Virus record (IMG/VR): IMGVR_UViG_3300033487_000014
Location: 1-44,572 of that record
Direction: 5' to 3' (one strand)
Origin: a virus
Taxonomy: Duplodnaviria; Caudoviricetes
DNA length: 44,572 nucleotides
Positions 10,283-44,572 of the stretch are shown piece by piece. The notes beneath the pieces were generated by a model. It ran no database searches, was not told where the DNA came from, and saw nothing but the letters and a program-made list of their open reading frames with translations. The position numbers were made by a program, and so were the translations under genes. Every line of letters starts with the position of its first letter. The first letter of the stretch is position 1.

Positions 10283-10300
10283 ATTTGTAAGGAGGTGTAT

Positions 10301-10642
10301 ATGGAAAAAGAAGAACCGAAGTACAAGCCGTTACAAGAGCGTCGTTGGGAAAAGGAGAAGGCTAAGGATTCAGTCGCTCCAGTTGAGCCTGTTGTGGTAA
10401 CACCCGAAACTCTTGCGGCAGAAAGGGAGAAAGTTAAGGCAAACGCAGGAGCATCTCTTGACGTTAAACCTACTGCAAAAACTACCAGTGTGATATTTAA
10501 GTCTATTGATGGTAGAAAGTTGCAGGTAGGAATAAATAAGGACTCCTGGGAAGGAACTACAATAACGGTTCCTAAAATAGTTGCCGATGATGTAGAAAGA
10601 CTCTTAGCCGACGGTCATTATTTGGCTACGAGAATTAACTAA
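10301..10642 (+). CDS. Protein with C-terminal domain shared with the GT2-GT4 fusion
   Basis: SD AGGAGGTG; VGINKDSWEGTTITVPKIVADDVERLLAD. Confidence 0.75.
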   Translation: MEKEEPKYKPLQERRWEKEKAKDSVAPVEPVVVTPETLAAEREKVKANAGASLDVKPTAKTTSVIFKSIDGRKLQVGINKDSWEGTTITVPKIVADDVERLLADGHYLATRIN

Positions 10643-10941: not shown

Positions 10942-11251
10942 CCGGGAACGTAAGATTAAACAAGAGCTTGAGGGGGAGGGGTATGCCCTTGTAGTGAGAA
11001 CAGCCGGTAGTCATTCCCCCGTGGATGTGATAGCAATAAAAGAAATGGCGGTGATTCCTGGTTGGGGACTGTGCTTTACAGGTAAACTGGTCCAATCTAA
11101 AACGTCAACAAGGTTTAAGCACATCAGAAAAATTGAGGAGTCTATCGAGACTAAAAATGGAAGTATAATTTACGAAAGATGGGAGTTTCCCACGAATGAA
11201 AAAAGGATTAAGCATATCAACCCTAAACGACGACGAACTGCAAAGCAGTAA
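10910..11251 (+). CDS. Holliday junction resolvase-like (Hjc-type) nuclease
   Basis: YQRGYNRERKIKQELE..GY..VRTAGSHSPVDVIAI...LVQSK. Confidence 0.8.
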   Translation: MPNLAYQRGYNRERKIKQELEGEGYALVVRTAGSHSPVDVIAIKEMAVIPGWGLCFTGKLVQSKTSTRFKHIRKIEESIETKNGSIIYERWEFPTNEKRIKHINPKRRRTAKQ

Positions 11252-11750: not shown

Positions 11751-11964
11751 GTCGTCTAACCTATCCAAAGATGAATTGGATGCACTTGAGAGGACCTGGC
11801 TTTCTCAAGGTAAGAGCCTGTCCCGCATAAGGTATCTGAGGTACTACTACCGCAACAGGGAGAGATACCTAAGTAAAAGCAAGAAGAGCAAGAACACTTC
11901 CAGAACGGCTCCTCTCGATGAGTTTGTAGAAAAGGTTGATATAAAGCCGGGACTTATTTTTTAA
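11719..11964 (+). CDS. Basic hypothetical protein
   Basis: RYYYRNRERYL basic segment. Confidence 0.55.
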   Translation: MTSLSQLQVNRSSNLSKDELDALERTWLSQGKSLSRIRYLRYYYRNRERYLSKSKKSKNTSRTAPLDEFVEKVDIKPGLIF

Positions 11965-17390: not shown

Positions 17391-17839
17391 TATCTTCCTA
17401 TCGCAAGCCAGGTAAGGTCGACCTGTGTCTCCGTACCTGAACTCAACGCCCAATAAATTGTAACGCCTGTAGTGGTGGGCGTGTTAGTTGTAACATAACA
17501 ATCAACCGAACTCCTACCCTGTACTGTTACAAACACTTCCGGCGTATCCCTAAAAGCCTTCCCGAAAGTTAGGGCAACCGAAGCCGAACCTGCTGCAACA
17601 CCGGTCCAAACTGCAACTCCGTGCTCCACCCGTTCAGTCGGTTGGTATCCTGCAATCGAATAAGGCGAGGCGTTCTTACCCAACCTTACAGAAGTTACCC
17701 CCTCGTGATTATGCAGTTTTATCAACTGTATTTCCAAAAACAACTCCGGGGACAAATGCCGCATCTTAACAGAACCATCAGCGATGCTGCTCCCCGAAGT
17801 TTGTTCTTTAGGTGCTGTCTCTAAGCTAAGATAAGACAT
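17390..17839 (-). CDS. Tail-associated protein with gp53/H-type-lectin-like C-terminal domain
   Basis: LTFGKAFRDTPEVFVT...TTTGVTI...WLAIGR. Confidence 0.65.
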   Translation of the reverse strand: MSYLSLETAPKEQTSGSSIADGSVKMRHLSPELFLEIQLIKLHNHEGVTSVRLGKNASPYSIAGYQPTERVEHGVAVWTGVAAGSASVALTFGKAFRDTPEVFVTVQGRSSVDCYVTTNTPTTTGVTIYWALSSGTETQVDLTWLAIGR

Positions 17840-17849
17840 TTACATCCTT

Positions 17850-18656
17850 TCATCCAAAAAAGCTCCTCAAAATCTTGATAACTTTAGCTTTGGCTTTTTC
17901 TGCCTGTTTTGTTACAGAAGATTGATAAGCCTTTGGATTACCTGAAGCTACATTCTGGACTGTCTTTACGGCTTTGTTGGCTAATATACCTACAGCCTTT
18001 GTTGGATTACTCACCGCTTTCTGTAAACTTCTTAGCACTCCACCCGACTGACTGACAAGCTGTTTGATGTTGGTGTTGGAAGCTATCTGTTTACTTGCCG
18101 ACGGAGCCTTAGTCTTACTAGGAATCTTAACTGTAGTAGAGCCAGGACCAGCAGTATAACTACCGGAAACCTGTCCCTGCATCGGTGCTTGAGACCCCAA
18201 TACTGTCGGTGCACTTGCTACCGCCTTCCCACCCTTAGAAACTGTCTTTGGTTTGAGAGACACACCTGCCGGTGTACCTACCGCCCCGCCAGTTCCTACC
18301 GCAGGAGTAGCTGCCCCACCTTTATTAGAAGTAGCTCTTGGAGCTATCCTAGAAGTTCTTGCTGCTACCGGACTAATCATTCCCATAGCGGACGGTCCAG
18401 CGACCTGTCCTGCTGACGCCATACTTTGAGGCATAATACCTCTCTCTTCAGGCATCTGAGTTCCGGTCTTAACTGCGACAACTTTCTTGGCACCCGGAGC
18501 AACCGGTCTCTCAATAGGTTCCTCAACTAAGTTTCTAGTCATAGTTCCAATAGCTCCTTTTCCTTCCGGTATAGCTTCTAACTTACTTCTCTGTTCTCTG
18601 AGCTTTCTGTATAACCCACCTGCTTTTGGTGTATATCCCATTTGTGAATACGGCAT
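17850..18656 (-). CDS. Basic low-complexity protein, probable internal virion protein
   Basis: K/A/P/G-rich; C-terminus resembles that of the 995-aa protein (LRSFFG vs LRSFLRI). Confidence 0.6.
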   Translation of the reverse strand: MPYSQMGYTPKAGGLYRKLREQRSKLEAIPEGKGAIGTMTRNLVEEPIERPVAPGAKKVVAVKTGTQMPEERGIMPQSMASAGQVAGPSAMGMISPVAARTSRIAPRATSNKGGAATPAVGTGGAVGTPAGVSLKPKTVSKGGKAVASAPTVLGSQAPMQGQVSGSYTAGPGSTTVKIPSKTKAPSASKQIASNTNIKQLVSQSGGVLRSLQKAVSNPTKAVGILANKAVKTVQNVASGNPKAYQSSVTKQAEKAKAKVIKILRSFFG

Positions 18657-19528: not shown

Positions 19529-22500
19529 TTATAATCTCGGTCTATCATCATCTAATAGAACCGGTCCGCTACTGTCTAGTATAGAACCAGTTGGCGTCTG
19601 ATTGCTACTCGACACCCCGGACATCAAAGAAATTGGTACTTCTCCGTCATAGGCTGTTAATCCCCTAGTAACAGTAACGGCGTCCGTTACGGTGGATTCG
19701 TCATAAACCTCTATGTTCTCGTTATCTTTCAATATTTCTACTGCATCTGTTACTTCCGTGGTATCAAATGCGTATATAAGTATCTCTATTGACGAACACT
19801 CAAGGGTTGGTCCGTCGGTAACTACACTTTCGTCATATACCGATATAATAAGCTGAGTTTGCAGAACCGTTGTATCATCAGTTACCGCAGTAGTATCAGA
19901 AACACTGATATTCTCGCTATCCTTACCTACTGTGTTGGAATCTGTTACTGTGGTTGAATCACTAACGTCTATTACCAGGTTGGTTTGCACTACCGTCGTG
20001 TCGTCAGTTGCCGTGGTTGAATCCGCTACGTTTATGTTCTCGCTATTCTTACCTACTGTAACTGCATCAGTAGCCGTTGTATCATCACCTACAAAGATTG
20101 CACAGATGTCCGCCCCTACGGTAGCGGAGTCAGTAACTATCGACTCATCATAGACATAAATCATCTTCGGATTTGTCTCTATTGTTGCTGAATCAGTTAC
20201 CGTTGTATCGTCCCCGACATTGATGTGCAGAGTTGGTATGAGGACCGTTGTAGAATCGGTAGCCGTCGTACTGTCTGTTACATCTATATTTTCACTATTC
20301 TTACCTACGGTTGCTGCATCCGTTACTGTAGTGGAATCACTTTTGTCTATGGTAAGATACGGAGAAAATACCGTTGCACTATCAGTAACCGCAGAACCAT
20401 CGTCTACATAGATATTCTCACTATTCTTTCCTACTGTGGCGGAGTCCGTGGCTGTCGTGGAATCGCTAACGTCAATGTTTTCACTGTTCTTTAAGATAGT
20501 AGTGGCGTCGGTAACTGTAGTGTCGTCCCCAACATTTATCTCCCGATACGCAATCTCCGTAGTTGTTTCTACTGTCCTATCATCAGTTACAGTAGATTCA
20601 TCATATACACTTATTATAAGAGGACTCTCCACCACAACCCCATCCGTAACAGTCGTACTATCACTAACATTAATGTATGTAGTCGGGGATTCAATACTAG
20701 CTGAGTCGGTTACGGTAGTATCGTCTCCTATGTTTATCTCGTAGGGAGGTTCTTGCTTTTCTACTGTTACGGAATCTGTAACTACTAAAACACCACTATC
20801 TTCCGCCCCTACAGTGTAAAAAGTTGAAGGACTGGATTGGTTGTTGTATTCAGTAGAAAGCCAGGTAGCTGTTAAAAGACCGCCTTTTATTCTGACCTCA
20901 TCAACAATACCATCCTCATAGTAACTATCATAACCACCAAGACCTCCTATAGATAGGTAAACATTTGTAGTTGTAGTATCCGGAGTTCCAGAGGTTACAG
21001 GGTCAGTCTTTTTTAATACACCATCAGAGTAAATCCTAATATCTGTGCTAATGTCTAGCACCATCGCTAGGTTTCTGAATTCCGTCGAAGTGTCATCAAT
21101 GGTAGCATCTCCATACATAGCCCCCGTACCTTGAAATACCATTCCCTGCATATTGTATCTGACGTTACTCGTACTAACAGCGTGCCACATACCCCCTTGA
21201 TAGTTGGCGTCTGTCCTTGCTTTCATAAGTGGAGAGCCGGAAGTTGAATGGTTTTTTACGATATACTGCCAGGTTTGGTCTGTAGCCATAAATATATTGG
21301 GACAAGATGTTCCAATTAGAGTAAACTTATCCTTATCTGTACTTTGTAAATCAACACCACCACCAATTCTTGCATCCGCAGTTAGAGGTGTATTAGTTTT
21401 AGTAAGGTCGTACGAGTTTGGAGAGCTATCGTAAGCTGCTGCATTACTTTGTAGGTGCCACACACCCTCATAGTCAGCCCAAACAGCGTGTGTTCCGTAA
21501 GTATCAGTATGTGCGTAATCGGATGCAGTCTCCTTACCATAGTAAATATAATAATCTGTATCCGTATCTCCGTCTATGGTGTCTGCTAAGAACCAAAGCT
21601 CTCCGGTATCAGATGCCGCCGTGTAGAATACAACCTCTCTAGCAAGCTCGGAAACACCATCAGATTTTGTAACTCTGATATCCCTAGCGTCTGTTTGATT
21701 TACGTGTGTATGAAATTCGCTAGGGAGGTCATTAAGGTTTACATAGACCGGAAAGTTTGTTAGGTCTGCATCAACCTTACTGGCTAAAGCGGTTATCTTA
21801 ACCCTGTATCCCCACGAGGAGTCATACCAACTTGCTCCACCAGCACCACCATCAGAAACGCTAATGTTACATTCCCCCGCCATTGTAACTGCGTCAGTTG
21901 CAGTTGTAGAATCACTTACATTTATACCCCAGGACCAATCATATGTTTCAGCAGCAGGAGAATCCGTTACTGTCGTGGTATCTGATACGTTAATATCCCA
22001 GGACCAATCGTATGTCTCGGCAGTTGGGGAATCAGTTACAGCAATAGTATCTGATACAGAGATATTCTCACTATCTTTTCCCGTTGTTACTGCATCGGTG
22101 GCTGTGGTTGTGTCATTGACATTTATTTCATAGTACGACTCATATTTCTCAACAGTAGTAGAATCAGTAACGGCTGTAGTATCACCAACATTTATCTCTG
22201 CCGGGGTTTCCTCCTTGTCCATTGTTACCGAGTCAGTAGCCGTTGTTTCATCGTAAACATTGATATTGCACCCACCAGCCATTGTTACTGCGTCGGTTAC
22301 GGTTGTGCTATCGCCTACCTCTATACTTTCGCTATTCTTACCTACTGTTACAGCGTCAGTTGCGGTCGTGGAATCTGATATATCTATGTTTTCACTATTT
22401 TTTTCTACTGTTGCTGAATCTGTAACAGCAGTAGAGTCGCTAACATCAACAGATTTGTCCCCTTCTGTTGCAACTTCGTGAATAACATAAATTACAGCTT

Positions 22501-24043
22501 TGTAAGCCCTACACGTGCCAATCCCGACAGAAGAATTACTACCTAATGGTTGAGCTAGTAAATCACCACCACCTCCATCACCATAAATATTACATCCAAG
22601 ATAGTAGTTAGAAACTGGATTAAAATAGGTAAATGTTCCCTCTAAAGCAGCTATCGCCTCCCAAGTCCAACCGCCATCCGGTGTTTTTAGATTATTTAAG
22701 GTGCCCCATCCATAGGTATTACTGCCACCATATATCTTAGCGTACACACCTACTATATTTTCACCACTGGTAGGGGCGTTTGTTCCTTCCGCCTTTAATC
22801 CGGCTGTAGAAAGAACAGTCGTATAAGCGAAGGTGCTTGGTGTTGAATCACTATCGAAAGCATTACCGTCGTCCGTCCATTGACTAGAGGCATCTGTTAC
22901 GGTTGCATCTGAACCGTCGAAATAATACTCTGTAGTTGTCAAACCGGAGTCATATTCTATGTACGCCCCAAGCCATAAACACCAGATATCGGGGTTTCCG
23001 TCAGTGGTAGCTACACCGCACTGCATATTATCTATAGAGTTTGTACCAGTAGGTGTCCAAAAGGTATTGGTAGATGGGTCATAATAGGAAACAAGCGTGC
23101 TACTACAATATGTGCTGCCGGATGGATTAGTATTAACTGTTGAACTTCCCCCGTCAACGCTTTGACTGGTTGAAACTGTCCCACCAGAGGCAGACTTTAT
23201 TCTAAGTGTGTAGTTGGAAGTACCCGATGATTCTTCTCTTATTCTCGCACGTACATCAACAAGTTTAATAAAGTCGGTAGAATCTATACCCAAATCCGAA
23301 CTACTTGTCATTCCAAAATCTCCTATAGCAGAGTTGTTGTCCAACTCAATCATTGTTACGCCGGATGTTGCGGTATCTGATGGGGGAATCTCGTTTATCA
23401 TTGAATAATCGCCAGTAGTAGGGTTGTTATCACCAGCAGCATTTGGAAGTGCTAATACAAGTTTTCCCGGTCCTGGCAAATCATCTTGTCCACCAGTTTG
23501 GCTGTTATCGTTTATGGCTACATCGTCGATGTGGACCTCGTATGTTCCACTATCAATAGCACCGTATCTAAATACATTCATCGACTCATTACAGCTTACA
23601 GTACCAGTAGCAAACTGGTCTCCATCTAAGTAAGCCGTGGCAGTTGTTCCTTCTATTTTTAGTTCGACTCTGTACCAAGTATCTACAGCAAGTGTTGAGC
23701 TATCAGAACCTTCCTGTGCACTTGCAACACTGTCCCAAAGTTCCAAAGATAAAGCACTGTTTAGTTTGATGTTTGCACAGTCCCGTGGGGTGCTGTCCCT
23801 GATTGTCATTACAGCAACTTCTCCGCTGGAAGGTGCTGCGTGGACACGAAGATAGATACGGAAATAGGAGGAGGATACACCGGTAGCCAATGTGTTATAC
23901 CCATACCTACCGCCGGAGGCACAGTTTAACGATGCACTACCAGACCTTTTAACAGAAGTATCTATTGTGGGTGAACCAGTGATGCTACATTCAACACCAC
24001 TAGTTACCGATTGCATTTCAAAACCATTAGTAAATCTACGCAT
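19529..24043 (-). CDS. 1504-aa virion fibre/adhesin: lectin-like domains, DUF2341 + ConA/LamG-like domain, 27 Ser/Thr/Asp-rich repeats
   Basis: WYDSSWGYRVKIT...NFPVYV...DIRVT...YYIYYG (DUF2341-like); GIVDEVRI...EYNNQ; repeat I-x-V-x-D-x-T-x-[VA]-T-D. Confidence 0.8.
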   Translation of the reverse strand: MRRFTNGFEMQSVTSGVECSITGSPTIDTSVKRSGSASLNCASGGRYGYNTLATGVSSSYFRIYLRVHAAPSSGEVAVMTIRDSTPRDCANIKLNSALSLELWDSVASAQEGSDSSTLAVDTWYRVELKIEGTTATAYLDGDQFATGTVSCNESMNVFRYGAIDSGTYEVHIDDVAINDNSQTGGQDDLPGPGKLVLALPNAAGDNNPTTGDYSMINEIPPSDTATSGVTMIELDNNSAIGDFGMTSSSDLGIDSTDFIKLVDVRARIREESSGTSNYTLRIKSASGGTVSTSQSVDGGSSTVNTNPSGSTYCSSTLVSYYDPSTNTFWTPTGTNSIDNMQCGVATTDGNPDIWCLWLGAYIEYDSGLTTTEYYFDGSDATVTDASSQWTDDGNAFDSDSTPSTFAYTTVLSTAGLKAEGTNAPTSGENIVGVYAKIYGGSNTYGWGTLNNLKTPDGGWTWEAIAALEGTFTYFNPVSNYYLGCNIYGDGGGGDLLAQPLGSNSSVGIGTCRAYKAVIYVIHEVATEGDKSVDVSDSTAVTDSATVEKNSENIDISDSTTATDAVTVGKNSESIEVGDSTTVTDAVTMAGGCNINVYDETTATDSVTMDKEETPAEINVGDTTAVTDSTTVEKYESYYEINVNDTTTATDAVTTGKDSENISVSDTIAVTDSPTAETYDWSWDINVSDTTTVTDSPAAETYDWSWGINVSDSTTATDAVTMAGECNISVSDGGAGGASWYDSSWGYRVKITALASKVDADLTNFPVYVNLNDLPSEFHTHVNQTDARDIRVTKSDGVSELAREVVFYTAASDTGELWFLADTIDGDTDTDYYIYYGKETASDYAHTDTYGTHAVWADYEGVWHLQSNAAAYDSSPNSYDLTKTNTPLTADARIGGGVDLQSTDKDKFTLIGTSCPNIFMATDQTWQYIVKNHSTSGSPLMKARTDANYQGGMWHAVSTSNVRYNMQGMVFQGTGAMYGDATIDDTSTEFRNLAMVLDISTDIRIYSDGVLKKTDPVTSGTPDTTTTNVYLSIGGLGGYDSYYEDGIVDEVRIKGGLLTATWLSTEYNNQSSPSTFYTVGAEDSGVLVVTDSVTVEKQEPPYEINIGDDTTVTDSASIESPTTYINVSDSTTVTDGVVVESPLIISVYDESTVTDDRTVETTTEIAYREINVGDDTTVTDATTILKNSENIDVSDSTTATDSATVGKNSENIYVDDGSAVTDSATVFSPYLTIDKSDSTTVTDAATVGKNSENIDVTDSTTATDSTTVLIPTLHINVGDDTTVTDSATIETNPKMIYVYDESIVTDSATVGADICAIFVGDDTTATDAVTVGKNSENINVADSTTATDDTTVVQTNLVIDVSDSTTVTDSNTVGKDSENISVSDTTAVTDDTTVLQTQLIISVYDESVVTDGPTLECSSIEILIYAFDTTEVTDAVEILKDNENIEVYDESTVTDAVTVTRGLTAYDGEVPISLMSGVSSSNQTPTGSILDSSGPVLLDDDRPRL
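19670..22460 (-). repeat. Coding ~21-23-aa tandem repeats (27 units) interrupted by a globular insert at ~20790-21850
   Basis: Counted in the translation: 9 units, 1 split unit, 17 units. Confidence 0.85.
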
Positions 24044-24044
24044 A

Positions 24045-24443
24045 TTACCCCTTTATAAACCTCCTGATATCGTCCAAATTATCTAAATTTTGGTCGCTTG
24101 TTATTACTTGATAGTAACTTTCTCTTATGTGCTGCATCATTTTATTTACCATTTCATCTAAGGTGTAGTTTTCCCCAAACCATAGAAACCCTAACGATGG
24201 AAGAAAATTGTTATCCTCAGCCACAGCTAAACTTCCCGCAATATTTCTTAGTTGTGAAGAACACTCCTTAGCTATTCCTAAAAATAGTTTTACTTCTGTG
24301 TCCGGATTTGATTTCAAACTACAACGGTAATAATCGCCGTCCTGGTATATGTCGATAGCATTTCTTAAAGCAACTGCAATCGCCCGTATTTTACTGAGCG
24401 TATCCGTGCTTTGTATTATTATTCCTATTGAATAAGTTTCCAT
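24045..24443 (-). CDS. Hypothetical protein
   Basis: 132-aa AT-rich ORF abutting the fibre gene. Confidence 0.6.
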   Translation of the reverse strand: METYSIGIIIQSTDTLSKIRAIAVALRNAIDIYQDGDYYRCSLKSNPDTEVKLFLGIAKECSSQLRNIAGSLAVAEDNNFLPSLGFLWFGENYTLDEMVNKMMQHIRESYYQVITSDQNLDNLDDIRRFIKG

Positions 24444-24463
24444 ATATCAAAACAAGCTGGATG

Positions 24464-24676
24464 TTAAACCAGCTTGTCCTTTACCTTTACTGACTCACCA
24501 ACATTTATACTAAGAGCGGGGGGAGCCCTCGAATCTAATTTTCTGATAGTGAAGTTTAGGGGTCCCACAATATCAGATTCGATGTACTCTTTTATCATTT
24601 CCGATATTATGGCGATAGCACCACCCAAACTATCTACTACTTTTATGTTTTCGTGTACGTTTATTTCTAACTGCAT
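24464..24676 (-). CDS. 70-aa protein with two copies of the fibre repeat motif
   Basis: SD GGAGGT, ATG 24676; EINVHENIKVVDSL and SINVGESVKVKDKL. Confidence 0.65.
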   Translation of the reverse strand: MQLEINVHENIKVVDSLGGAIAIISEMIKEYIESDIVGPLNFTIRKLDSRAPPALSINVGESVKVKDKLV

Positions 24677-25499
24677 CTTTTTTAACCTCCGGTTCAAACT
24701 TTTTAGGTACGGTAAGAGGATACATCCTGCCGGTGTCGTCAATATGCCTCACAAAAATCCTTGTATCTACCAGAAATGGGTTTTCCATTTCCTGATACTT
24801 CTTCCATCCGGCTTTCTCAAAATACTTACCCTCTATCACCCGTCTGCACCACATCAGGTCCGATGTTCCGCTTTCACTTCTCATCATTCCTGTTTTCTCG
24901 TCAAACCAAACTTTAGCGGGAGCGTCAAATACACGCCTTACCTTCATACCGCCAGCACTGTATTCGGGAGAATCTTTATACATCTCCTTGATAATGGACA
25001 TATTTATCAGTATCGTACCCGTGGGTACTCCTGTAGCCCATACAAGGTCTCCCATCTTCCATTTGTCGTAATGTCCGTTCCCGGCTCCCCGGTATATCAT
25101 AGGTTCCGGAGGCACCGACTTTGTAAAATACAGACCTGATACTACTGGTATTTTACTCTCTATCATATACTCGTTCAAACGCAAAAAACAATCCGGGGGC
25201 AAGACATTATCCTGTTCTATCAATACCAACCACTCAACGTCGAGTTCTATGGCTTTTTGCACAATGATGTTTTGAGCGTCTGCCACCAAAAACCTAAGAG
25301 GAGCTACAGATGCAATCCAGGGACGTAGTTCCTGTTGAGACCAGTTAGTAGGAATTGTCTGTCCCCACCTTCCCATCGCCCACTCAATCCTCACAAGACC
25401 CGTTACGGGAGTTCCTATAAGAAGCCTAGACCTCCAATACCCCGTGTTTTCTATTATCTGACCGGTAAGGTCAGTTACTACTTTAGCTTGCTTTTTCAT
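24630..25499 (-). CDS. GT-A fold glycosyltransferase (GT2-like)
   Basis: LLIGTP...VADAQNIIV...LVLIEQDNVLPPD...VVSGLYF...GTILI...SDLMWC...VDT. Confidence 0.8.
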   Translation of the reverse strand: MKKQAKVVTDLTGQIIENTGYWRSRLLIGTPVTGLVRIEWAMGRWGQTIPTNWSQQELRPWIASVAPLRFLVADAQNIIVQKAIELDVEWLVLIEQDNVLPPDCFLRLNEYMIESKIPVVSGLYFTKSVPPEPMIYRGAGNGHYDKWKMGDLVWATGVPTGTILINMSIIKEMYKDSPEYSAGGMKVRRVFDAPAKVWFDEKTGMMRSESGTSDLMWCRRVIEGKYFEKAGWKKYQEMENPFLVDTRIFVRHIDDTGRMYPLTVPKKFEPEVKKDAVRNKRTRKHKSSR

Positions 25500-26092
25500 T
25501 TTTCCACCTCCGCTATAAGTACCTCGTTCCTGGTTACAGAGCCTTTAGGAAACTTCTGAGACCCGATAGGAGGTATAGGTTTATGCTTTGGTACCAACGT
25601 CAACGTGCCCTTCTTAAATCCTGCGGTCAGCAAACACCAGTTAAGAAACTGCGGATTAAGAGCGACCCTGTGATACTCCTCAAACGCCTGTTGGTTTCCG
25701 TAAATGGTCTCCATAACCTGAAAGTAGATGTTAGGGTCAAACTTTCCTGTCATCACTTCCAGCCAATCCTTCATAAGACCGTCAAAGTTCGGACTCGTCA
25801 TTACAAACTTAGCTCCCGGTTTCATCACACGCCTGATTTCCACCAGTGCCGGCACCACATCCCGCATTGGCAGGTGTTCTAATACCTCAAACATTTCCAC
25901 ATAATTTGCGTAGTTGTCCTTAAAGGGCATCTTCCTAATGTCAGCTTTAACATATTTAGCACCCCTATCCCATTTTACAGACCTAAAGATACCCTTCTTG
26001 CTCTTTAAATCCGATTCCTCGTACAGGTCCACATTCACAAAGTCCTTTTTAATATGGATTCCACAGCCTAAATTTAACCGTATTTTATTCAT
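25496..26092 (-). CDS. Class I SAM methyltransferase
   Basis: RLNLGCG, VNVD, DIRKMPF, VLEH, RRVMKPGA. Confidence 0.9.
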   Translation of the reverse strand: MNKIRLNLGCGIHIKKDFVNVDLYEESDLKSKKGIFRSVKWDRGAKYVKADIRKMPFKDNYANYVEMFEVLEHLPMRDVVPALVEIRRVMKPGAKFVMTSPNFDGLMKDWLEVMTGKFDPNIYFQVMETIYGNQQAFEEYHRVALNPQFLNWCLLTAGFKKGTLTLVPKHKPIPPIGSQKFPKGSVTRNEVLIAEVEK

Positions 26093-26630
26093 ATTTTACT
26101 TTCCCACTTGCGTGAAAAGTTTTGTCGTCTCTCATTTTTACGAGCAAAACTTCTAAATTGCCCTCCTCTACCCATCCTATGTTCTCAACTTTCCAGGGAG
26201 CGGGCTCGTAGGTATAGTACAAAGCCGCCCCGTCTATGACCTTTAGGGGGTCAAAATAGTACCAGGTTACTTCATTACAGCCGTTGATGTGAGACGGGTC
26301 CTGCCAGTAACCAAGAGAACCAGCATAAGGTGTAGACACCATAAGCTGTCCCCCGTATTTTGTTATCCTCCAAACTTCATCCATCCATCTGAGAAACCCC
26401 TCGTGTCGTGGGTCTATATGTTCTACCACCTGGGTAGCAACAACAAGGTCTGCCGTATTAGACGGTATTTCCCAGGGGAATTTCTCAGGGTCTATCACTA
26501 CATCAGCGTTCGGGTTGGGCTTAAAGGATATGTTAATGAAGTTCCGCTTTAAGTCCGCAATATTACCAAGTTGTATATTGACAAAATTCTTTGTCTCAAT
26601 CAGCTTTTTGATTTTTTCTTTATCCGTCAT
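26085..26630 (-). CDS. Class I SAM methyltransferase (motif I degenerate)
   Basis: FPW, VVEHI, EVWRITKYGG, QDPSH; motif I reads IQLGNIA. Confidence 0.8.
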   Translation of the reverse strand: MTDKEKIKKLIETKNFVNIQLGNIADLKRNFINISFKPNPNADVVIDPEKFPWEIPSNTADLVVATQVVEHIDPRHEGFLRWMDEVWRITKYGGQLMVSTPYAGSLGYWQDPSHINGCNEVTWYYFDPLKVIDGAALYYTYEPAPWKVENIGWVEEGNLEVLLVKMRDDKTFHASGKVKYE

Positions 26631-26652
26631 AAATCCTTTCTTCCATACAAAA

Positions 26653-26708
26653 GACCTTGCAACTCTAACGTCTCCGAAAAAGTTACAAGGTCGTTAGTGG
26701 AGACGTTA
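26653..26708 (-). other. Interleaved inverted repeats (pseudoknot or switchable terminator)
   Basis: 12-bp pair 26653-64/26681-92 and 10-bp pair 26666-75/26699-708, in X-Y-X'-Y' order. Confidence 0.75.
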
Positions 26709-26724
26709 ATACTACTAACCTACA

Positions 26725-27225
26725 TCAGGAAAACCTAAGTTCGTAAGTACAGTTTACAGATTGGTTACTCTGTAAGGTGCTTTGGGTATAGGTTTGTCCT
26801 GCTATGATTGTACCCTGTGTTATAGACGAAACAGCAAACAACCCAATGTTTTGAATCGCCTGTGTCGTCGAGAAATAACCTGAAGTTAATGTCCCAACGA
26901 ACCTTGCGGTCTTGCTCGATACCGCCGTAGGTGTAAGTGCAACCCTAATGCTCGATGATGCTGTTCCACCAGTGAGTTCACTTCCAAGACCTGTTGCGTT
27001 AGAGGCTGTCGTAGTACCCGACCCCAAAGCTACATACTGTGGATATACAGGTGTTACGGATGCAACACTTCCGACCCTTCCAACTATACAGGATTCATAC
27101 CCATAGTTAGTAATCTGATTTTCCAACCATCCGCTATCTCCTACAACCTTAGCTTCGCCGCTATCGTGTTCTACAATATTTAGCCTAAAAAAGCCACTTA
27201 CTTTTGAATTATCGTGCATCTTCAT
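26725..27225 (-). CDS. Beta-rich structural protein (putative fibre subunit)
   Basis: NQITNYG...YVALGSG...IGLF...YELRF pattern of phage structural proteins; Ser/Thr-rich; SD AAGGAGGTGA. Confidence 0.6.
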   Translation of the reverse strand: MKMHDNSKVSGFFRLNIVEHDSGEAKVVGDSGWLENQITNYGYESCIVGRVGSVASVTPVYPQYVALGSGTTTASNATGLGSELTGGTASSSIRVALTPTAVSSKTARFVGTLTSGYFSTTQAIQNIGLFAVSSITQGTIIAGQTYTQSTLQSNQSVNCTYELRFS

Positions 27226-27305
27226 TTCTACTCACCTCCTTAATATAAAAAATAGTAACTCCACACTAATATTAAAACTATCAAGGCTCTGACACAACTT
27301 CGACA

Positions 27306-29324
27306 CTAGATATCCGCCTTATTAGACAGTACAATCCCCGGTCCATAGGCATCCGTGAGGATTCTGATAACCTCGGAGGCATAGATGTACGGGACTGTAA
27401 GTGTCTTACCCTCCCACCGCTCCATACCTATAGAAACCATAACAGGCATACTCGTCTCAATCTTATACATAGTTTCTTTCTCAATCTCGATAGCCTCACG
27501 TACAGGTGCGGGATGTTCCCTAGCCCGGTGTTTGAAAAGCTCAAATGCCGTCTTAAACTGCTTGGAGCAAAGATTACAAGTGTTCATAGGAATTTCCTTT
27601 CTTAAAGCATAGAACTTTTGTTCGTAAACATCCACTAATGTACGCCAGTCAAATCCGTGTGCCCGTTCCATACCGGCTTTTCTGTACTCCTCCAACTTCT
27701 CCTTGTTGGTAAGAAGTCCTACAACAGCCTTAATGTAGTCTCCCTTGTAATTCTCGTGCTCGGGATGGTAGCCAATTACAATTCCGCCTTCCCCGACAGT
27801 AAACTTCATAGAACCGATGTCAGAAGTTACCGGAACTGCTCCGGCAGCCATACACTCAAGAGCGGAGATGCAGAAATTCTCATCATAATTGCAGGTATAG
27901 GGCATTAACTCCGAGGTTAGCTGGTGCTCTACCATAACACTCCGGGGAACCCTGCCTAAATAGTGGATTCCGTAAGCCCGCATCTCATCTGCGGTTTGTC
28001 TTTGTACCGCATTATCCGGGTCCTTGCCTCCCCAAAGCGTGTAATCTGCGGTAATCCACAAACTTGCATTAGGAACCTGCCTTTTAATCTCGGGGAACCA
28101 TTTTAAAATATAGTCCAGTCCCCGCTTAGGAACCGAACAGAAAACCATCTTGCCGGGAACTTTCTCTGGTATCTTCTCATAATCATATCCGTTTAATCCG
28201 TTATACATAATATCAATCTTGTTGCTCTTAATAGAGTAGTGATTAAGGATGTAGCTCTTGTGGTAAGGGGAAACACAGAACATCCGGTCTATCAGGGGGA
28301 ATATATCGGTCTCCCAGTTAGGACTGGTCCATTGGTCGTGGCTAAAGAAAATACGGGTTCCGCAGTACATATTAGTTACAGATGGATGATAATTTCTGTA
28401 GAGAATAAAGATGTCTGCAAAGATGTCTACATCCAAATGTGCCAGGTTGTACCAGTACACGCCGTTATACATCCCCTCATTTGTGGTGTCGTTATAGACC
28501 TCTACAAGATGCCCCTTCTTTACAAGCTCCCGGGTAAGACAAATCAATGTTGCCTCAGAACCCCCAACCCCCCTGCCCTCGTAGGATGAGTCGTTGAAGT
28601 CGTTATCCGGACAGTTAAACACAATAACTATCCGCAACTTGTCTTTTTTCTCCAAGCTGGCAAGTTTATTCTCCCAAACCTTTTGAGCAGTCTTAGTCAT
28701 CTCCTCAATATCTTTTAACCTAGACACCGTCTTAGAGCCAAAATGCTCTACTCCGGGGTCTATGTATTCCAATGTATAGCCAAGCAGTTTGAATGATACT
28801 GACAACCACCCGTCCTCAAAGAATCCCTTGCCGAAATCCTCATCCCACGGACCGGGGAGCTTGTCGAAATCCTCTTTAGCCCCAAACACACACCAACCTT
28901 CAAGGTAATCGGTACACCTGCCTCTCCACTCAGTCCACATATTGCCTTTGACCAGTTTACCCCCGTATATCACGTTAGGATTGAGCTTTTTGGCATCAAC
29001 AAACCTCTTTAACCACAAAGAATTGAGTACAATTATGTCGTTGTTAATGAATATGACAAACTTCCCCCGTGCTTTAGCAAAGCCCTTATTGTTACCCCCA
29101 CTGAACCCCAAATTATGCGTTAGCAGTATAGGCACGAGTCTGCTATCTTTTTTACTATAAGCTGCCAATTTCTCCCCAGTTCCGTCTGTAGAACCGTTAT
29201 CAACTACAATTAATTCATAATCTACATTTTCAGTTTTACTCAGGATGCTGTCAATGGCGGGCTTAGTGTACTCCTCATACAAACCCCACCCTAACATCAC
29301 TATAGACACCTCCGGACTGCTCAC
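27306..29324 (-). CDS. GT2-GT4 glycosyltransferase fusion with C2H2 finger and small C-terminal domain
   Basis: VVDNGSTDG, FINND (GT2); GGSE, ENFCISALECMAAG (GT4); CNLC..FELFKHRAREH. Confidence 0.92.
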   Translation of the reverse strand: MSSPEVSIVMLGWGLYEEYTKPAIDSILSKTENVDYELIVVDNGSTDGTGEKLAAYSKKDSRLVPILLTHNLGFSGGNNKGFAKARGKFVIFINNDIIVLNSLWLKRFVDAKKLNPNVIYGGKLVKGNMWTEWRGRCTDYLEGWCVFGAKEDFDKLPGPWDEDFGKGFFEDGWLSVSFKLLGYTLEYIDPGVEHFGSKTVSRLKDIEEMTKTAQKVWENKLASLEKKDKLRIVIVFNCPDNDFNDSSYEGRGVGGSEATLICLTRELVKKGHLVEVYNDTTNEGMYNGVYWYNLAHLDVDIFADIFILYRNYHPSVTNMYCGTRIFFSHDQWTSPNWETDIFPLIDRMFCVSPYHKSYILNHYSIKSNKIDIMYNGLNGYDYEKIPEKVPGKMVFCSVPKRGLDYILKWFPEIKRQVPNASLWITADYTLWGGKDPDNAVQRQTADEMRAYGIHYLGRVPRSVMVEHQLTSELMPYTCNYDENFCISALECMAAGAVPVTSDIGSMKFTVGEGGIVIGYHPEHENYKGDYIKAVVGLLTNKEKLEEYRKAGMERAHGFDWRTLVDVYEQKFYALRKEIPMNTCNLCSKQFKTAFELFKHRAREHPAPVREAIEIEKETMYKIETSMPVMVSIGMERWEGKTLTVPYIYASEVIRILTDAYGPGIVLSNKADI

Positions 29325-30238
29325 TTGAATACCTCCTCCAAAATCAAATTACACCTATCTTGATAGGTATTCTTACCTGTTGTTACAGCTTTCCACCCTC
29401 TGTCGGCAATCTCCTTCCAAATGTCGGTAGATACCAAACTAACTGCTTTATCTGCCACACCCCCATAAATACCCCTATTTTCATTAAAAGAGGCATAACA
29501 GTCCCTCGGTATGATATGTTCGATACTGCTTAATTCCGCCTGGTTGTTGGTTAAAACACAATTACCCATAGCAAGCCCTTCCCAAAATCTTGCCGGGAGG
29601 TCCTCAAGGGACGACCAGTTGAACGCAATCTTGCCTTTATTATAGGTCTTGTTATATTCGTCAAAAAGTATGCCCAAAGTGTTAAAAACCTTGAGTCCCC
29701 GACGTTCCATTTCTTTCAAAGCCTGGACCCGATGTTCATACTGCAACCCGATAAACACGACGTCGTAAATCTTCTCCATCCGTGGTATACGTTTATGTAT
29801 CCCAGGCATATAAGCATAAGGTACCCAAAACTTGTTCTTAAAAGAATAACGGTCCATATAGTATTTCTGCATACAGGCAAAGTGAGACGCATCTGCGAGT
29901 CTTGGCAGGTAGTTTACAGAGTGGGGGTCGGTTGCCAGTATCACATTCGGACATAAAGGCTTACCACTAAGGTAGGTGGTATCAGCAGCCTGTAGAACCA
30001 TCTCCGGGTACCACGGCATCCTATTTATCACCGTCTCAATGGGGAAACTTTCAACCTCCGGAATCTCTAAATCCGGTGGGCAATCGTAGTCGGGAAAATC
30101 AAACTCCGGACCCCAGGGTATCTTGCCGCCATTGTAGCAGCCAACAGTAAAAACCTGGTGCCCGAGGTCTTTTAACGCCCAGTCAAAGTATCTGCCCAAA
30201 GCCATAGGAAAATGTCTGTAGTGTAGTAGTATCTTCAC
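29321..30238 (-). CDS. GT-B glycosyltransferase (Glyco_trans_1_2/CgeB-like)
   Basis: YDVVFIG, KIAFN, RFWEGLAMG, IADRG...NTYQDR. Confidence 0.85.
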   Translation of the reverse strand: MKILLHYRHFPMALGRYFDWALKDLGHQVFTVGCYNGGKIPWGPEFDFPDYDCPPDLEIPEVESFPIETVINRMPWYPEMVLQAADTTYLSGKPLCPNVILATDPHSVNYLPRLADASHFACMQKYYMDRYSFKNKFWVPYAYMPGIHKRIPRMEKIYDVVFIGLQYEHRVQALKEMERRGLKVFNTLGILFDEYNKTYNKGKIAFNWSSLEDLPARFWEGLAMGNCVLTNNQAELSSIEHIIPRDCYASFNENRGIYGGVADKAVSLVSTDIWKEIADRGWKAVTTGKNTYQDRCNLILEEVFK

Positions 30239-30744
30239 GGCTTCCTCCCATACGCAAAAATTGAATTGTTAGGTTTCTCTTTGTTCAAATCATTATGGTC
30301 GTAGTAGTATTCCAAGTGAAAATCTGTGTAACCCTCGAACATTTTAGCTACCGCCTCCTCTGTAAATCTGTAATAATCGTGGGGAAAATCGTGCTTAGTA
30401 AAGGAAATACCCGGTACTGTAACAAGCATCCAGCCCCTATGTTTTAGGGCATCTCGCATATTTGCTACTGTAAGCCAAAACATATCGTCGTGCTCCAACG
30501 TCTCACAACAAGTTATGAGGTCAAAACACTCATACCCAAGTGTGTCCAGTTCGTGTCCGTTTAGAACCAGGTCTACCCCAGGTCCAGGTCGCATATCTAT
30601 TCCTGTAAAGTTTACATAAGATGCAGGACTTAGAATATCTTTAACACTACCATTAATATTGTAGGAACCTACATCCAAGACATCCCTAAAGGGAGCAAAT
30701 TTTGCCTCAAATCTTAGTAAAAAATCCTGCACATTTCCGAACAT
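30235..30744 (-). CDS. Class I SAM methyltransferase
   Basis: VLDVGSYNING, GIDM..GPGVD, LEHD, PHDYYRFT. Confidence 0.88.
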   Translation of the reverse strand: MFGNVQDFLLRFEAKFAPFRDVLDVGSYNINGSVKDILSPASYVNFTGIDMRPGPGVDLVLNGHELDTLGYECFDLITCCETLEHDDMFWLTVANMRDALKHRGWMLVTVPGISFTKHDFPHDYYRFTEEAVAKMFEGYTDFHLEYYYDHNDLNKEKPNNSIFAYGRKP

Positions 30745-30745
30745 A

Positions 30746-31243
30746 TTATTCTTTCTGAAGCCGCACTGTCAAACTAAATCCATCATTAACCGACATCAGC
30801 TTCTTAAATTTGAAGGTAATTCCATAAGAAATATAAGCAAAATCTGCCGGGTCTCCGCCTCCCCATTCCCCACAAAAGTAATTGAAAAACCCATCAGTTA
30901 TCTGAGGTCCGCAGTGTGTGGGGTCTTGAGAATGTGTTTCAAAACAACCGGGAACTGAAACGTGCAAAATCCCTCCGGGTACCAAAACCCTGTAAGCCTC
31001 CGCCATAAGATGAACTCTCGGATAGAAAGTCTCCCATTTTTTCGTTGTCTCGTTAAAATGTTCTACCACTGATGGACAGTGTTCCATAATCATCTCCATC
31101 CGCACCTCATCTACAGAACAGTCGGAAACCTTCCACTTCTCCATAGCAACATCCTGGACAATCGTAGTTTTAGGGAACTGTACTCTGTCAATTTGGATAT
31201 CAGCCTCACTATGAGGTCCGGCACCTACATCAAGTTTGACCAT
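30746..31243 (-). CDS. Class I SAM methyltransferase
   Basis: KLDVGAG, MEH, EAYRVLVPGG, QDPTH. Confidence 0.88.
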   Translation of the reverse strand: MVKLDVGAGPHSEADIQIDRVQFPKTTIVQDVAMEKWKVSDCSVDEVRMEMIMEHCPSVVEHFNETTKKWETFYPRVHLMAEAYRVLVPGGILHVSVPGCFETHSQDPTHCGPQITDGFFNYFCGEWGGGDPADFAYISYGITFKFKKLMSVNDGFSLTVRLQKE

Positions 31244-32315
31244 TTTTTACCTCCTTTAAATTTTTAACCATAGACTTTGTGGCGACCTCCCAAGATTCCT
31301 TTTCGTCAATCCACTCCGAAGCCTCCCGTCCCATATCGGCTGCATCCTCAAGATGTTCAAAACACCACCTCATATAATACATCAATTCCTGTATATCAAT
31401 CATAGCCCAGTTACCGGGCTGCTCCACGGTCATAGGGTTTACTCCCCGTTCAAAGTGGTCCGGCTCTATAGGAAAATTGAATCGAGGGTTACAGATATCG
31501 GAAAGTCCGGAATAATTCGTCAGGATGACAGGTAGACCCGTGGACATAGCTTCTCGAGGTGGCATCCCAACTCCCTCAGCTCGTGAGGGAAATACAAAAC
31601 AATCAAATATATGATACAAATTCACCATCTCCTCAGTGTTTAGGTGCCGTATATCAACGCTAATCCTCGGGTCCGTGTAATGAGAGTAGAATCCAAAGTC
31701 CTTATTGGAGCTTTTAATATAGAGTCGCACCGGTTCCCACGGTAAAAACTCAGAAACAAACGCCCGGATAACGTCAAACACACCTTTTCTGTCTCCCGCT
31801 CCCTCCACGCCATTCATATAGCCAACCATTCCAAAAGTATACATATCCCGTATGGGACGCTCGTAGTAGGAAAATCTCTCAGTGTCAATACCCTGCTTGA
31901 CCACACGGATTTTATCTTCAGGAACCCCCGCACGGGTAAATACCTCACGATTAAACTCATTGGGCACAAATACATAGTCCATATTGCAACAGGCACCTAC
32001 CCAGGGGGTCCCTATTTCGTCAGACTCGCACATTGTATAACCTATTTTTATATCGTTATCAACCTCCGGAAAACTAAAGGGAGTAGAGTTTATAAAGCCA
32101 ATAGTCTGCTTTTCCCACGGTACAGAAAATATCTCCCGCTCTTCGTCAGACAGGGCATCCCATTCAGGAGTTTTAGGTTTAGGAGTATTTTTGGGATGGG
32201 GATAAATGCCCACTTCAACTCTTTTTAAATATTTTGCAGAATTTAAACTGGCGATTCCGTAACCGCCAAAAGGGGTCCAAAGTCCATAGTGGTTAATGTC
32301 CAAGATATTTGGCAT
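31230..32315 (-). CDS. GT4 glycosyltransferase
   Basis: GGYG, YTMCES, DRKG, FVFPSRAEGVGMPPREAMSTGLPVI. Confidence 0.92.
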   Translation of the reverse strand: MPNILDINHYGLWTPFGGYGIASLNSAKYLKRVEVGIYPHPKNTPKPKTPEWDALSDEEREIFSVPWEKQTIGFINSTPFSFPEVDNDIKIGYTMCESDEIGTPWVGACCNMDYVFVPNEFNREVFTRAGVPEDKIRVVKQGIDTERFSYYERPIRDMYTFGMVGYMNGVEGAGDRKGVFDVIRAFVSEFLPWEPVRLYIKSSNKDFGFYSHYTDPRISVDIRHLNTEEMVNLYHIFDCFVFPSRAEGVGMPPREAMSTGLPVILTNYSGLSDICNPRFNFPIEPDHFERGVNPMTVEQPGNWAMIDIQELMYYMRWCFEHLEDAADMGREASEWIDEKESWEVATKSMVKNLKEVKNGQT

Positions 32316-32496
32316 AGGACGAATGAGCTATGGCTTCATACTCTGCATAGGTATTTATTCTTATCCTATTGTTGGCAGCGTATGTCCAATGGTCTCTGTT
32401 TACACCGACCTCCACGGTAAAGGGAAAAGTAACCTCAAAAGGCAGGAGAACCTCTTTCAGAGACTTAACCGGCTTGTTACTACGTTTTCGTTCCAC
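32293..32496 (-). CDS. 67-aa protein carrying the shared small domain
   Basis: GTG start after the capsid terminator; VEVGVNRDHW. The track ORF extension runs through the terminator. Confidence 0.6.
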   Translation of the reverse strand: MERKRSNKPVKSLKEVLLPFEVTFPFTVEVGVNRDHWTYAANNRIRINTYAEYEAIAHSSYAKYLGH

Positions 32497-32503
32497 TGTA
32501 GTC

Positions 32504-32532
32504 AATCTAACAAATAAGAGAGAAAAAAACAA
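32504..32532 (-). promoter_or_regulatory. Candidate promoter for the glycosylation cassette (leaderless)
   Basis: TTGTTT-N17-TAGATT with TG extension; GTG 7 nt downstream. Confidence 0.45.
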
Positions 32533-32548
32533 GAGCCCGAAGGCTCTC
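32523..32548 (-). terminator. Intrinsic terminator after the major capsid gene
   Basis: GAGAGCC-UUCG-GGCUCUU-G-U7. Confidence 0.85.
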
Positions 32549-32649
32549 ATTTTCCCGATATAGGCTCCGGGTACTTTATCTTTTTCAGTATCCGCCCTAC
32601 TCAAGCCGTCGGGACTGCATCTTGTTTTTATACCAATAATGCCAAGCTC

Positions 32650-33573
32650 TTATCTAGCCGATTCAATTCTCCTCAACCAGTTCTGATTGAGAATAACAGC
32701 CTTCAAGTAAGCCTTCCAAGCTATTGCCGTCTTGACTTTGTACTCATCGCCGTGTCCACCCGGAGGTGTAATTACGACATCGAAGTCTCCTGGCAACAGT
32801 CTTGTGATACCGTAAGCACCGTCTCCGATGATTATGGTCTGCTCCAAATGAGCGACTGCGTTATTAGAACCTGAGTTAGATACAGATGGTGCCGTGGATG
32901 TTACTACAAAGCGTACTCCGTCAACGGTTACAAGTTCCCCTGTAAACATTGTCTTTTTGCTTTCAAGTCCTCTCACAGCGTCTCGGAAAGCACTATCCTT
33001 CATTAACCTTGTTTTGACATAAGGTGAGATTATTGCGATATAGTTATCGCCGATTCTCATAGCGTCCTGAGCCTCAAGAGACTCGACGTTATCTAAAATG
33101 TCATCCAGGTCAAGCGTATCGGCTGAGGTTACAAGGTTTCTAGCAGCCTTTGAATTTGCGTATCCCGCATTTGTACCAGCTACTAATACATCCCTTACTT
33201 TCTCGTTGATAGTTTCACCTGCATTTTGCCCAACAAGTTTTTTATACTCATCAGGTAGGTTAAGGAAAGAAGTTTCGCCCAAGAACTCGACTAGCTCTAC
33301 ACCGTTACCCCACAGCTCTAATGTCGCAGTAATCACGGACTCTGTAACTGCTACAGGTGCCCAGGTTGGGTTATCATCCAGCACTGCTACAGGAACGGTC
33401 ATTTTAGTGAACCGAATCCAGCTTGCTGTTTGACCCTTTCTCTGCATTATCAGGTCAGGTTGACCGAATTGTGGGTAAACGAGTTTAGGCTTTGCGAACT
33501 CTAGGGTCTTACGGACATTGTATACTTCAATCTCCAAAGCCCCTTCGGTTCTGGTCATCACTGTTCCAGCCAT
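32650..33573 (-). CDS. Major capsid protein (N4-gp56-like)
   Basis: LVYPQFGQ, GELVTVDGVRFV, IIIGDGAYG, AVILNQNWLRRIES; follows the scaffold and precedes a terminator. Confidence 0.9.
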   Translation of the reverse strand: MAGTVMTRTEGALEIEVYNVRKTLEFAKPKLVYPQFGQPDLIMQRKGQTASWIRFTKMTVPVAVLDDNPTWAPVAVTESVITATLELWGNGVELVEFLGETSFLNLPDEYKKLVGQNAGETINEKVRDVLVAGTNAGYANSKAARNLVTSADTLDLDDILDNVESLEAQDAMRIGDNYIAIISPYVKTRLMKDSAFRDAVRGLESKKTMFTGELVTVDGVRFVVTSTAPSVSNSGSNNAVAHLEQTIIIGDGAYGITRLLPGDFDVVITPPGGHGDEYKVKTAIAWKAYLKAVILNQNWLRRIESAR

Positions 33574-44482: not shown

Positions 44483-44572
44483 GGACTTCTCCTAGTTCTT
44501 TGACCCCAATTATCGTAGATTTACCACAATGGGGGCATTGTATGGAGGGAATAAAACCCCCAAAAAGCGAGT
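44094..44572. repeat. Terminal direct repeat, right copy
   Basis: Matches 1-479. Confidence 0.95.
44454..44572 (-). CDS. 3' end of putative terS (duplicate, partial)
   Basis: Identical to 361-479. Confidence 0.7.
   Translation of the reverse strand, partial: SLFGGFIPSIQCPHCGKSTIIGVKELGEVLEQSRLQED

Follow-up and report, generated by a model that had tools for sequence, protein, structure and literature searches.

The virus record IMGVR_UViG_3300033487_000014 of IMG/VR (Duplodnaviria; Caudoviricetes), whose positions 1 to 44,572 make up the window analysed here, carries a cassette of glycosyltransferase (GT) and methyltransferase genes between the gene for the major capsid protein and the gene for a repeat protein of 1504 amino acids (aa). 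We give a probability of about 0.62 to the reading that two separately inherited modules in this cassette decorate the particle's own proteins with sugars and methyl groups, the second of them by way of a tag that copies the repeats of a rope-like fibre protein. Module 1 follows the capsid gene, and module 2 includes the gene for p166, in which the fold prediction points to a bead of a chain-like fibre. All cassette genes are on the minus strand, tightly spaced and translationally coupled, and they lie between capsid and fibre genes at the coordinates given in the first-pass annotation of this DNA. That annotation had also proposed two sub-modules, and the division agrees with what relatives carry: module 1 is found alone (L003, L044, L045 and others), module 2 alone (L028, L030), both together in this phage, and neither in L046. 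Separate inheritance of the two modules is strongly supported at the level of gene content.

The genes of module 2 travel together. In viral loci picked by its glycosyltransferase GT289 alone, a gene of the MT181 type lies just upstream in 27 of 27, and a p166-type gene is present in 25 of 27; of the two loci without a p166 call, one contig is cut and one gene is unlabelled. Loci from GTDB give 10 of 10 for the MT181-type gene and 9 of 10 for p166. When loci are picked from the other side, by the p166 subfamily (seed contigs removed, clustering at 90%, 2 kb of downstream sequence required), both enzymes are found in 63 of 63 clusters vs 0 of 29 in the sister subfamily, and an Asp/Thr repeat protein is encoded close by in 37 of the 63 vs one of the 29. 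The pairwise distances of three module-2 genes are correlated (Mantel rho 0.52-0.61 over 104 trios, with 0 of 500 permutations as high). In a tree of 43 selected bead proteins, all module-2 beads are on one side of one branch with a support of 100/99, which means one gain, with no loss seen. The carriers of module 2 represent six PHROG major-head families and range from 30 to 65% in guanine-plus-cytosine content; judged from the sequences, module 2 is a mobile unit that moves across capsid families. The bead of the window groups with those of L015, L020 and L028, and not with the beads of the window's capsid relatives, so that this phage lineage likely swapped module 2 in. In a sizeable minority of module-2 loci (L139, L144, L150, L152, L160, L163, L167 and others) there are gaps of 0.6-1.5 kb between the bead and methyltransferase genes.

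The last gene of module 2, rm70 (24464..24676, minus strand), encodes a small protein whose C-terminal end is a single copy of a rope-like repeat (called the tag here); by the score of a repeat matrix, the N-terminus has another, weaker copy. A matrix made from 508 rope repeats only finds such C-terminal single copies in 24 of 87 module-2 loci. A tag matrix, from which the tested locus was left out each time, finds the tag in 55 of the 87; its C-terminal consensus is roughly PPxLG[VI]xVx[DE]x[VI]xxx[ED]x[LI]G. The controls are close to empty: 0 of 1,922 ends of opposite-strand open reading frames (ORFs) within the module, 8 of 4,619 ends on the same strand beyond the module, and 0 of the 29 sister loci. 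Most carriers are small stand-alone ORFs (49), and in six loci the tag is fused to an enzyme, three times to GT289 and three times to MT181. An intact MT181 occurs together with a fused tag in L136, L279, L035 and L167. What had been described as a repeat mimic is in this way a conserved C-terminal element, and since it can be fused to the one enzyme or the other, it would seem to be a part of their complex. Whether it docks on the bead is about an even bet, with the groove meant for the rope as the presumed site.

GT289 (24630..25499, minus strand) represents an unannotated family of GT-A fold, recognised from its predicted structure and conserved motifs, with 1,845 database relatives. It has no match in Pfam, PHROG or NCBIfam, none in 50,697 phage records and no sequence match in the PDB, and among cultured phages neither GT289 nor p166 was found. 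The model has a predicted local distance difference test score (pLDDT) of 80 and matches GT-A enzymes, with STIV A197 as the best match, followed by LH3 and SpsA. The alignment to STIV A197 (PDB 2C0N) has a Z of 16.2 and a root-mean-square deviation (rmsd) of 2.9 over 174 residues at 16% identity; the second-best, to residues 293-521 of LH3, has a Z of 15.0. Within the family the metal-site Asp is present in 104 of 104 clusters, the Asp at the catalytic position in 103 and a C-terminal His in 99, the roles of these residues being general knowledge on GT-A enzymes; E-x-D and TSD replace the usual GT-A motifs. GT289 is thus predicted to be a GT-A glycosyltransferase, and the earlier count of four GT genes holds, three of them by Pfam and the 289-aa one by its predicted fold without a Pfam family. 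Of ten genomes with GT289 matches, five are Patescibacteria, which is a host lead only, as several are probably phage contigs in bins.

The bead, p166 (26725..27225, minus strand), is rich in Ser and Thr (26.6%) and its model has a pLDDT of 83. The top structural match is a domain of a tail chain of HFTV1 (Z 9.3); gp80, the fibre I protein of phage GP4 (8jou_a), matches with a Z of 8.1 and an rmsd of 3.9 over 121 residues, and unrelated rows of the same search have a Z of 4 or less. Its neighbours in the Atlas carry PF23140/PF12571, three relatives match PF23140 weakly, and there is no sequence match in the PDB. From the model, p166 is likely the fibre subunit itself, and it is a likely acceptor of module 2. 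In chain-like fibres, subunits of 140-170 aa form dimers that are threaded along a rope protein through beta-sheet augmentation (PMC13730344). Since p166 has the predicted gp80 fold, the 1504-aa protein (19529..24043, minus strand) is likely its rope. It has 24 strict Asp/Thr repeats of 21 residues in two blocks, mostly 21 residues apart, together with LamG and DUF2341-like domains and an exchangeable N-terminal head, and would likely serve as rope and adhesin in one. In one contig of sequencing run X4, 147 bases of the repeat block are missing (window positions 20493-20641), perhaps a repeat-number variant or a misjoin.

A related strain shows which part of the fibre the enzymes go with. Strain L001/L013 keeps the whole cassette, but right after rm70 its fibre protein changes to another N-terminal head, joined to repeats of the same kind; the identity of L001 to the window ends at 24449, beside a hairpin (24452..24477, z -3.5) that closes module 2. 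As the head is switched while the cassette is kept, the enzymes follow the bead and rope, not the variable head. We consider it quite probable that module 2 acts on the fibre. The strain lacks the 132-aa ORF at 24045-24443, for which the loci searched contain no homologue.

The cassette was previously said to hold four small class I methyltransferases, and three of them, MT165, MT169 and MT198, keep the glycine-rich motif I. MT165 (30746..31243, minus strand, 165 aa, QDPxH type) has no Pfam match and is found by the MT181-family profile (E 9e-28), whereas MT169 (30235..30744, minus strand; PF13489, E 5e-7), MT198 (25496..26092, minus strand; PF08241, E 4e-12) and MT181 all match Pfam. The fourth, MT181 (26085..26630, minus strand), is the obligate partner of GT289, and in its family alignment motif I for S-adenosylmethionine (SAM) is degenerate: three residues of the SAM-binding region are replaced, each of them conserved at 93-98% in 134 family clusters. 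A gene like MT198 is found in a minority of module-2 loci. The MT181 motif fails in five of the eight clusters that also hold such a gene, and it is intact in 121 of 126 clusters without one (the five exceptions being two that are cut off and three variants), a hint that MT198 took over catalysis from MT181, given that the eight clusters are probably related to each other. Sequence searches of the PDB gave no match for MT169, uninformative matches for MT198, GT4a and the MT181 family, and no solved relative that defines the substrate of the QDPxH family. In every relative inspected, the methyltransferases sit among GTs and nucleoside diphosphate (NDP)-sugar genes, and the neighbours include a match like a rhamnosyl O-methyltransferase. 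Methyl-capped glycans would be, by analogy, the product of the cassette.

Module 1 begins after the gene for the major capsid protein, which is of the N4-gp56 type (32650..33573, minus strand; phrog_1357 E 3e-39, TIGR04387 over cut-off). It is led by sd67 (32293..32496, minus strand), a small conserved protein, and GT4a (31230..32315, minus strand), a GT-B glycosyltransferase of 361 aa with an EX7E motif (PF00534, E 1e-12). The survey of this module covered 22 loci with a capsid identity of at least 36%, of which 21 have downstream sequence and several are near-copies. In 20 of these 21 informative relatives sd67 and GT4a stand side by side directly after the capsid gene, and L046 lacks both. 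What follows this fixed core varies, with further GTs and methyltransferases in the relatives; here it is MT165, MT169, the CgeB-like GT-B enzyme GT305 (29321..30238, minus strand, 305 aa; PF13524) and GT672 (27306..29324, minus strand, 672 aa), in which Pfam matches identify a GT2 and a GT4 domain, besides a zinc-finger-like stretch and a small C-terminal domain. The absence of NDP-sugar genes, noted earlier together with that of base-modification genes, applies to this genome only (no NDP-sugar, TET/5mYOX, ThyS or C5-methylase family in the 66 of 130 window ORFs scanned, the others being mostly alternative frames that overlap larger genes). Relatives often do carry NDP-sugar genes: L003, L005, L007, L012, L047 and L048 have RmlD-like, DegT, epimerase/dehydratase, cupin or hexapeptide genes in the module 1 slot. 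Farther capsid relatives (L054, L057, L059, L061, L076, L098, L100, L105) have GT or NDP-sugar genes there, and L062 and L069 have neither among the genes scanned. As side observations, L049 has a collagen-repeat protein (16582-18168) after module 1, where the bead and rope genes otherwise stand, and in L027 (3063-3695) and L031 (3045-3617) a gene with a GroES (Cpn10) domain is found between the capsid gene and a GT2 gene.

In L052 and L053 module 1 is flanked by a capsid gene and an adaptor gene, and no bead gene was detected there, which favours the head, and we lean slightly towards the capsid as the protein that it acts on. The case for the head lies in gene position and in a weak domain similarity. 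The latter is between sd67 and the tail of GT672, for which HHalign with a 95-sequence profile gives a probability of 22% and an E of 9e-4, above 60 of 60 shuffles, with a template alignment that included two members picked partly by eye; with a shallow profile the similarity is not significant. As for the earlier claim that this sub-module is led by a shared-domain protein, sd67 does head module 1, and its similarity to GT672 is weak. Homologues of sd67 are almost all stand-alone (94 of 95 are 120 aa or less), there is no usable Atlas match, and the protein after the capsid gene of the GT-free L069 also matches the sd67 profile (E 9e-4); the domain may be a general capsid-associated one that was borrowed by GT672. 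A plus-strand ORF outside the cassette (10295..10642) has a domain in common with the C-terminus of GT672 (E 3e-4 among 10,845 ORFs). It belongs to a plus-strand cluster at 10295-11964 that converges on the late operon and also holds a Hjc-like resolvase and a 184-aa ORF. The latter (11196-11750) looked methyltransferase- or Rossmann-like by eye, but no profile matches it. Distant homologues of GT4a are found in 134 records of cultured actinophages and others, with about 25-28% identity among the matches listed. One of them, gene 28 of Arthrobacter phage KellEzio (L332:8608-9708), lies inside the structural operon of a cultured phage.

Several observations weigh against the reading proposed here. 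The p166 subfamily A was seeded with GT-linked sequences, and on the bead tree the contrast of 63/63 vs 0/29 amounts to one evolutionary gain. The Z of 8.1 between p166 and gp80 is moderate, and the top match is to a tail-protein domain of another virus. Similarity to GT-A enzymes leaves the acceptor of GT289 unfixed, and the total Ser+Thr content is alike in the two bead subfamilies (0.229 vs 0.220, p 0.53), so that bead and rope cannot be distinguished as acceptor. No tag was found in 32 of the 87 module-2 loci. MT181 is here probably a scaffold rather than an enzyme, which would leave one of the methyltransferases inactive. For module 1, no GT-fused form is present among the 95 sd67 homologues, and the module lies just upstream of the bead gene in most relatives, ending directly at it in L003, L006, L007, L012, L044 and L045; it could in that position act on the fibre. 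Of the separate addressing of head and fibre that the first-pass annotation suggested, an addressing device is supported for module 2, by the conserved tag and its enzyme fusions, and for module 1 there are gene position and weak domain similarity.

The same observations can be read as one pathway with one target. The eight enzymes would then jointly make a glycan for the fibre, or for whatever Ser/Thr of the particle is exposed; the split into two blocks would be a matter of history, and the tag would serve bead assembly as a chaperone or end-cap and not as an address for enzymes. The six relatives in which module 1 runs into the bead gene, the 49 of 55 tags that stand alone and the weak link between sd67 and GT672 all agree with this. 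It is nevertheless unlikely, because module 1 occurs without a detected adjacent bead gene (L052, L053), module 2 occurs without module 1 (L028, L030), and six fusions connect the tag to enzymes. It is more doubtful still that the particle proteins are modified with something other than methyl-capped glycans, be it methylation of side chains or of a donor, or transfer of a non-sugar group by GT289. Methylation of a tail protein by a host enzyme is needed for the infectivity of a mycobacteriophage (PMC13445384), no solved relative fixes the substrate of the QDPxH family, and the E-x-D and TSD of GT289 are not the usual motifs; against this stand the GTs and NDP-sugar genes around the methyltransferases, the rhamnosyl O-methyltransferase-like neighbour, and the methylated sugars known from mimivirus fibrils (PMC9614988).

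Two further explanations place the acceptor outside the particle proteins. The enzymes could act on the surface of the host or on one of its soluble molecules, for superinfection exclusion or counter-defence, and both a match of GT4a to PF20706 ('GT4-conflict', E 4e-9) and a cassette content that varies like that of an O-antigen locus would suit this. Seroconversion cassettes of the gtrABC type include a membrane flippase and a membrane transferase, and this feature is missing from the cassette proteins: no membrane helices are found in them (the top 19-residue hydropathy is 1.47, compared with 2.0-3.15 for three ORFs of the lysis region), and no GtrA/GtrC-like or integrase family is present among the window ORFs scanned. 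As the genes belong to the late operon for the particle and module 2 goes with a single fibre subunit, we regard an effect on the host as very improbable. The lowest credence goes to hypermodification of DNA, where the GTs would glycosylate the phage genome. Many phage GT-A/GT-B enzymes do glycosylate 5-hydroxymethylcytosine (bioRxiv 10.1101/2023.12.21.572611), but the 5mYOX/TET, ThyS or C5-methylase genes that mark such clusters according to the same source were not found in the ORFs scanned, and module 2 also occurs in bacterial chromosomes beside genes of twin-arginine translocation (Tat).

Decoration of the particle by two modules could proceed as follows. On the grounds of fold and literature, p166 would be the bead of a chain-like fibre of the GP4/A1002 type, and the 21-residue repeats of the 1504-aa protein its docking sites. 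The tag, located on rm70 here and fused to a GT or methyltransferase elsewhere, would occupy the rope groove on beads that are not yet assembled and so hold GT289, MT181 and MT198 at the bead. GT289 would take a sugar from an NDP-sugar of the host and attach it to a Ser, Thr or Asn residue in bead or rope, an active methyltransferase would then methylate the sugar-bearing product, and the multivalent rope would displace the tag from the modified bead. Module 1 combines a fixed starter, sd67 and GT4a, with a changing set of GTs and methyltransferases, to which relatives add NDP-sugar enzymes. Its product would be a glycan that differs between strains and most likely sits on the capsid; the sd67-like domain that ends GT672 may help to steer it, a step with weak support. 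We put forward only tentatively a wider version, in which module 2 would be a portable system for fibre glycosylation that has an address code of its own: one C-terminal repeat copy would dock the GT-methyltransferase complex in the groove of the bead where the rope binds, and every bead would be modified ahead of threading. The unit would pass between unrelated phages and would also serve, in Saccharimonadales chromosomes, as a Tat-exported and sugar-coated surface fibre, and in this phage a second system for the head, addressed in another way, would give two glycans per particle.

Glycosylation of particles by virus-encoded enzymes is already known, as is the chain fibre without enzymes. As an example, virions of mycobacteriophage Che8 are glycosylated by phage-encoded GTs (Freeman et al. 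2023, as cited in PMC11256854, PMC13445384 and PMC12582341), and in the cluster O phage Corndog an O-methyltransferase and three GTs among the head genes were proposed to modify the capsid (PMC4351075). The likeness is in the phage-encoded GTs and, for cluster O, the methyltransferase among particle genes. Mycobacteriophages are absent from the matches of GT4a (no Mycobacterium phage among its 134 records) and of GT289, the two proteins for which kinship was tested, and the available parts of those papers describe no fibre-linked module, rope tag or slot with variable NDP-sugar genes. The chain-like fibres of GP4 (fibre I, gp80, PDB 8JOU), VP1 and A1002 likewise have a subunit of 140-170 aa, with a similar predicted fold, and a long neighbouring protein with candidate docking sites in tandem (PMC13730344). 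The main text of that paper has no word that begins with 'glyco'; in the present phage the subunit is linked to a GT, a methyltransferase and a tag that resembles the rope, and some two dozen repeats and adhesin heads that can be exchanged are found in the candidate rope. STIV A197 is a minimal viral GT-A enzyme proposed to glycosylate a particle protein with host donors (PMC10551542), but it is an enzyme of an archaeal virus at 16% identity to GT289, and no partner methyltransferase or tag is described for it in the text available. A literature search, mostly outside subscription papers, found no glycosylated chain fibre, rope tag or such a module. Capsid glycosylation in chloroviruses is reportedly a comparable clustered system that acts at the particle surface. 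In the fibril clusters of Megavirinae, GTs stand together with NDP-sugar enzymes and a methyltransferase; the gene content differs by clade, and the enzymes act on the particle surface (PMC9614988). Compared by description with these giant eukaryotic viruses, the phage relies on host NDP-sugars; NDP-sugar genes beside GTs are lacking in its genome and found in the same slot of relatives, which alone encode them.

The virus record is rated 100% complete. Its ends (1-479 and 44094-44572) overlap inside the terminase gene by 479 bases at 95% identity with 24 mismatches, which suggests two alleles in one assembly. The late operon on the minus strand comprises the terminase and portal genes, genes for two large proteins, of which one has a lytic transglycosylase domain, a scaffold-like gene, the capsid gene, the cassette, the 1504-aa protein, an SU10-like adaptor (weak match) and the lysis genes; this gene set suggests a podovirus. 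A stretch of the 1231-aa tail protein (13758-17453) resembles the N-terminal domain of AgmC (E 1e-27, under cut-off). Promoter-like sites are at chance level (16 vs 18.8). A terminator-like hairpin of 15 pairs with a U-run lies in the spacer between capsid gene and module 1 (32523..32556, minus strand; z -2.0 for the whole spacer, with six of 200 shuffles equally good), and another with a U-run lies between p166 and the module-2 enzymes (26653..26692, minus strand; z -3.8, 0 of 200 shuffles). Together they would fit abundant structural genes followed by enzymes at a lower level, but the second is not conserved, as a comparable element is found after the bead gene in four of 40 relatives scanned (the first 40 of the 63 loci). 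Strain L001 is 99.5% identical to the window over 19.1 kb, and 92 of the 93 differing sites are within the cassette, with 77 synonymous and 10 non-synonymous differences in its codons. They are densest in GT305 (27 synonymous, 6 non-synonymous), and MT181 (8 and 0) and rm70 (6 and 2) follow the same pattern. The cassette thus recombines with diverged alleles and is, by these counts, under purifying selection, MT181 and rm70 included. At least 90% of the words sampled from the cassette are present in four wetland runs of one study, of which one may be the source, and the capsid profile has no match in 401 genomes of the class of genome G003.

Module 2 is also found in cellular genomes. L117 (a contig of 181 kb) and L119, both from Saccharimonadales genomes, have bead, methyltransferase, GT, tag and repeat genes, located beside TatA, TatC, small twin-arginine or Tat-associated ORFs and a collagen-like protein (L117:3936-11037 and L119:3509-12531). 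The terminase family PF03237 has no match over cut-off in either genome, and the 20 kb upstream of module 2 in L117 hold, by eye, ordinary cell genes. A position beside TatA and TatC and away from phage genes fits a protein acceptor. The two beads nest among viral beads in a tree whose root was not tested, and in L119 the gene that follows the tag has a domain in common with the head of the L013 fibre (E 2e-33). Module 2 is rare in the order (3 of 401 genomes), and a phage fibre has possibly been reused here as a cell-surface structure.

Virion glycosylation has been shown in few phages. Here, an unannotated family of about 1,800 GT-A proteins comes with one fixed structural partner and a candidate address tag of 20 residues. 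If the reading is true, a known fibre architecture gains a glycosylated form that has not been reported, and designed fibres could be given sugars by means of the tag. From the copies next to Tat genes in chromosomes there is a hint that some Patescibacteria have turned a phage fibre into a structure of their own surface.

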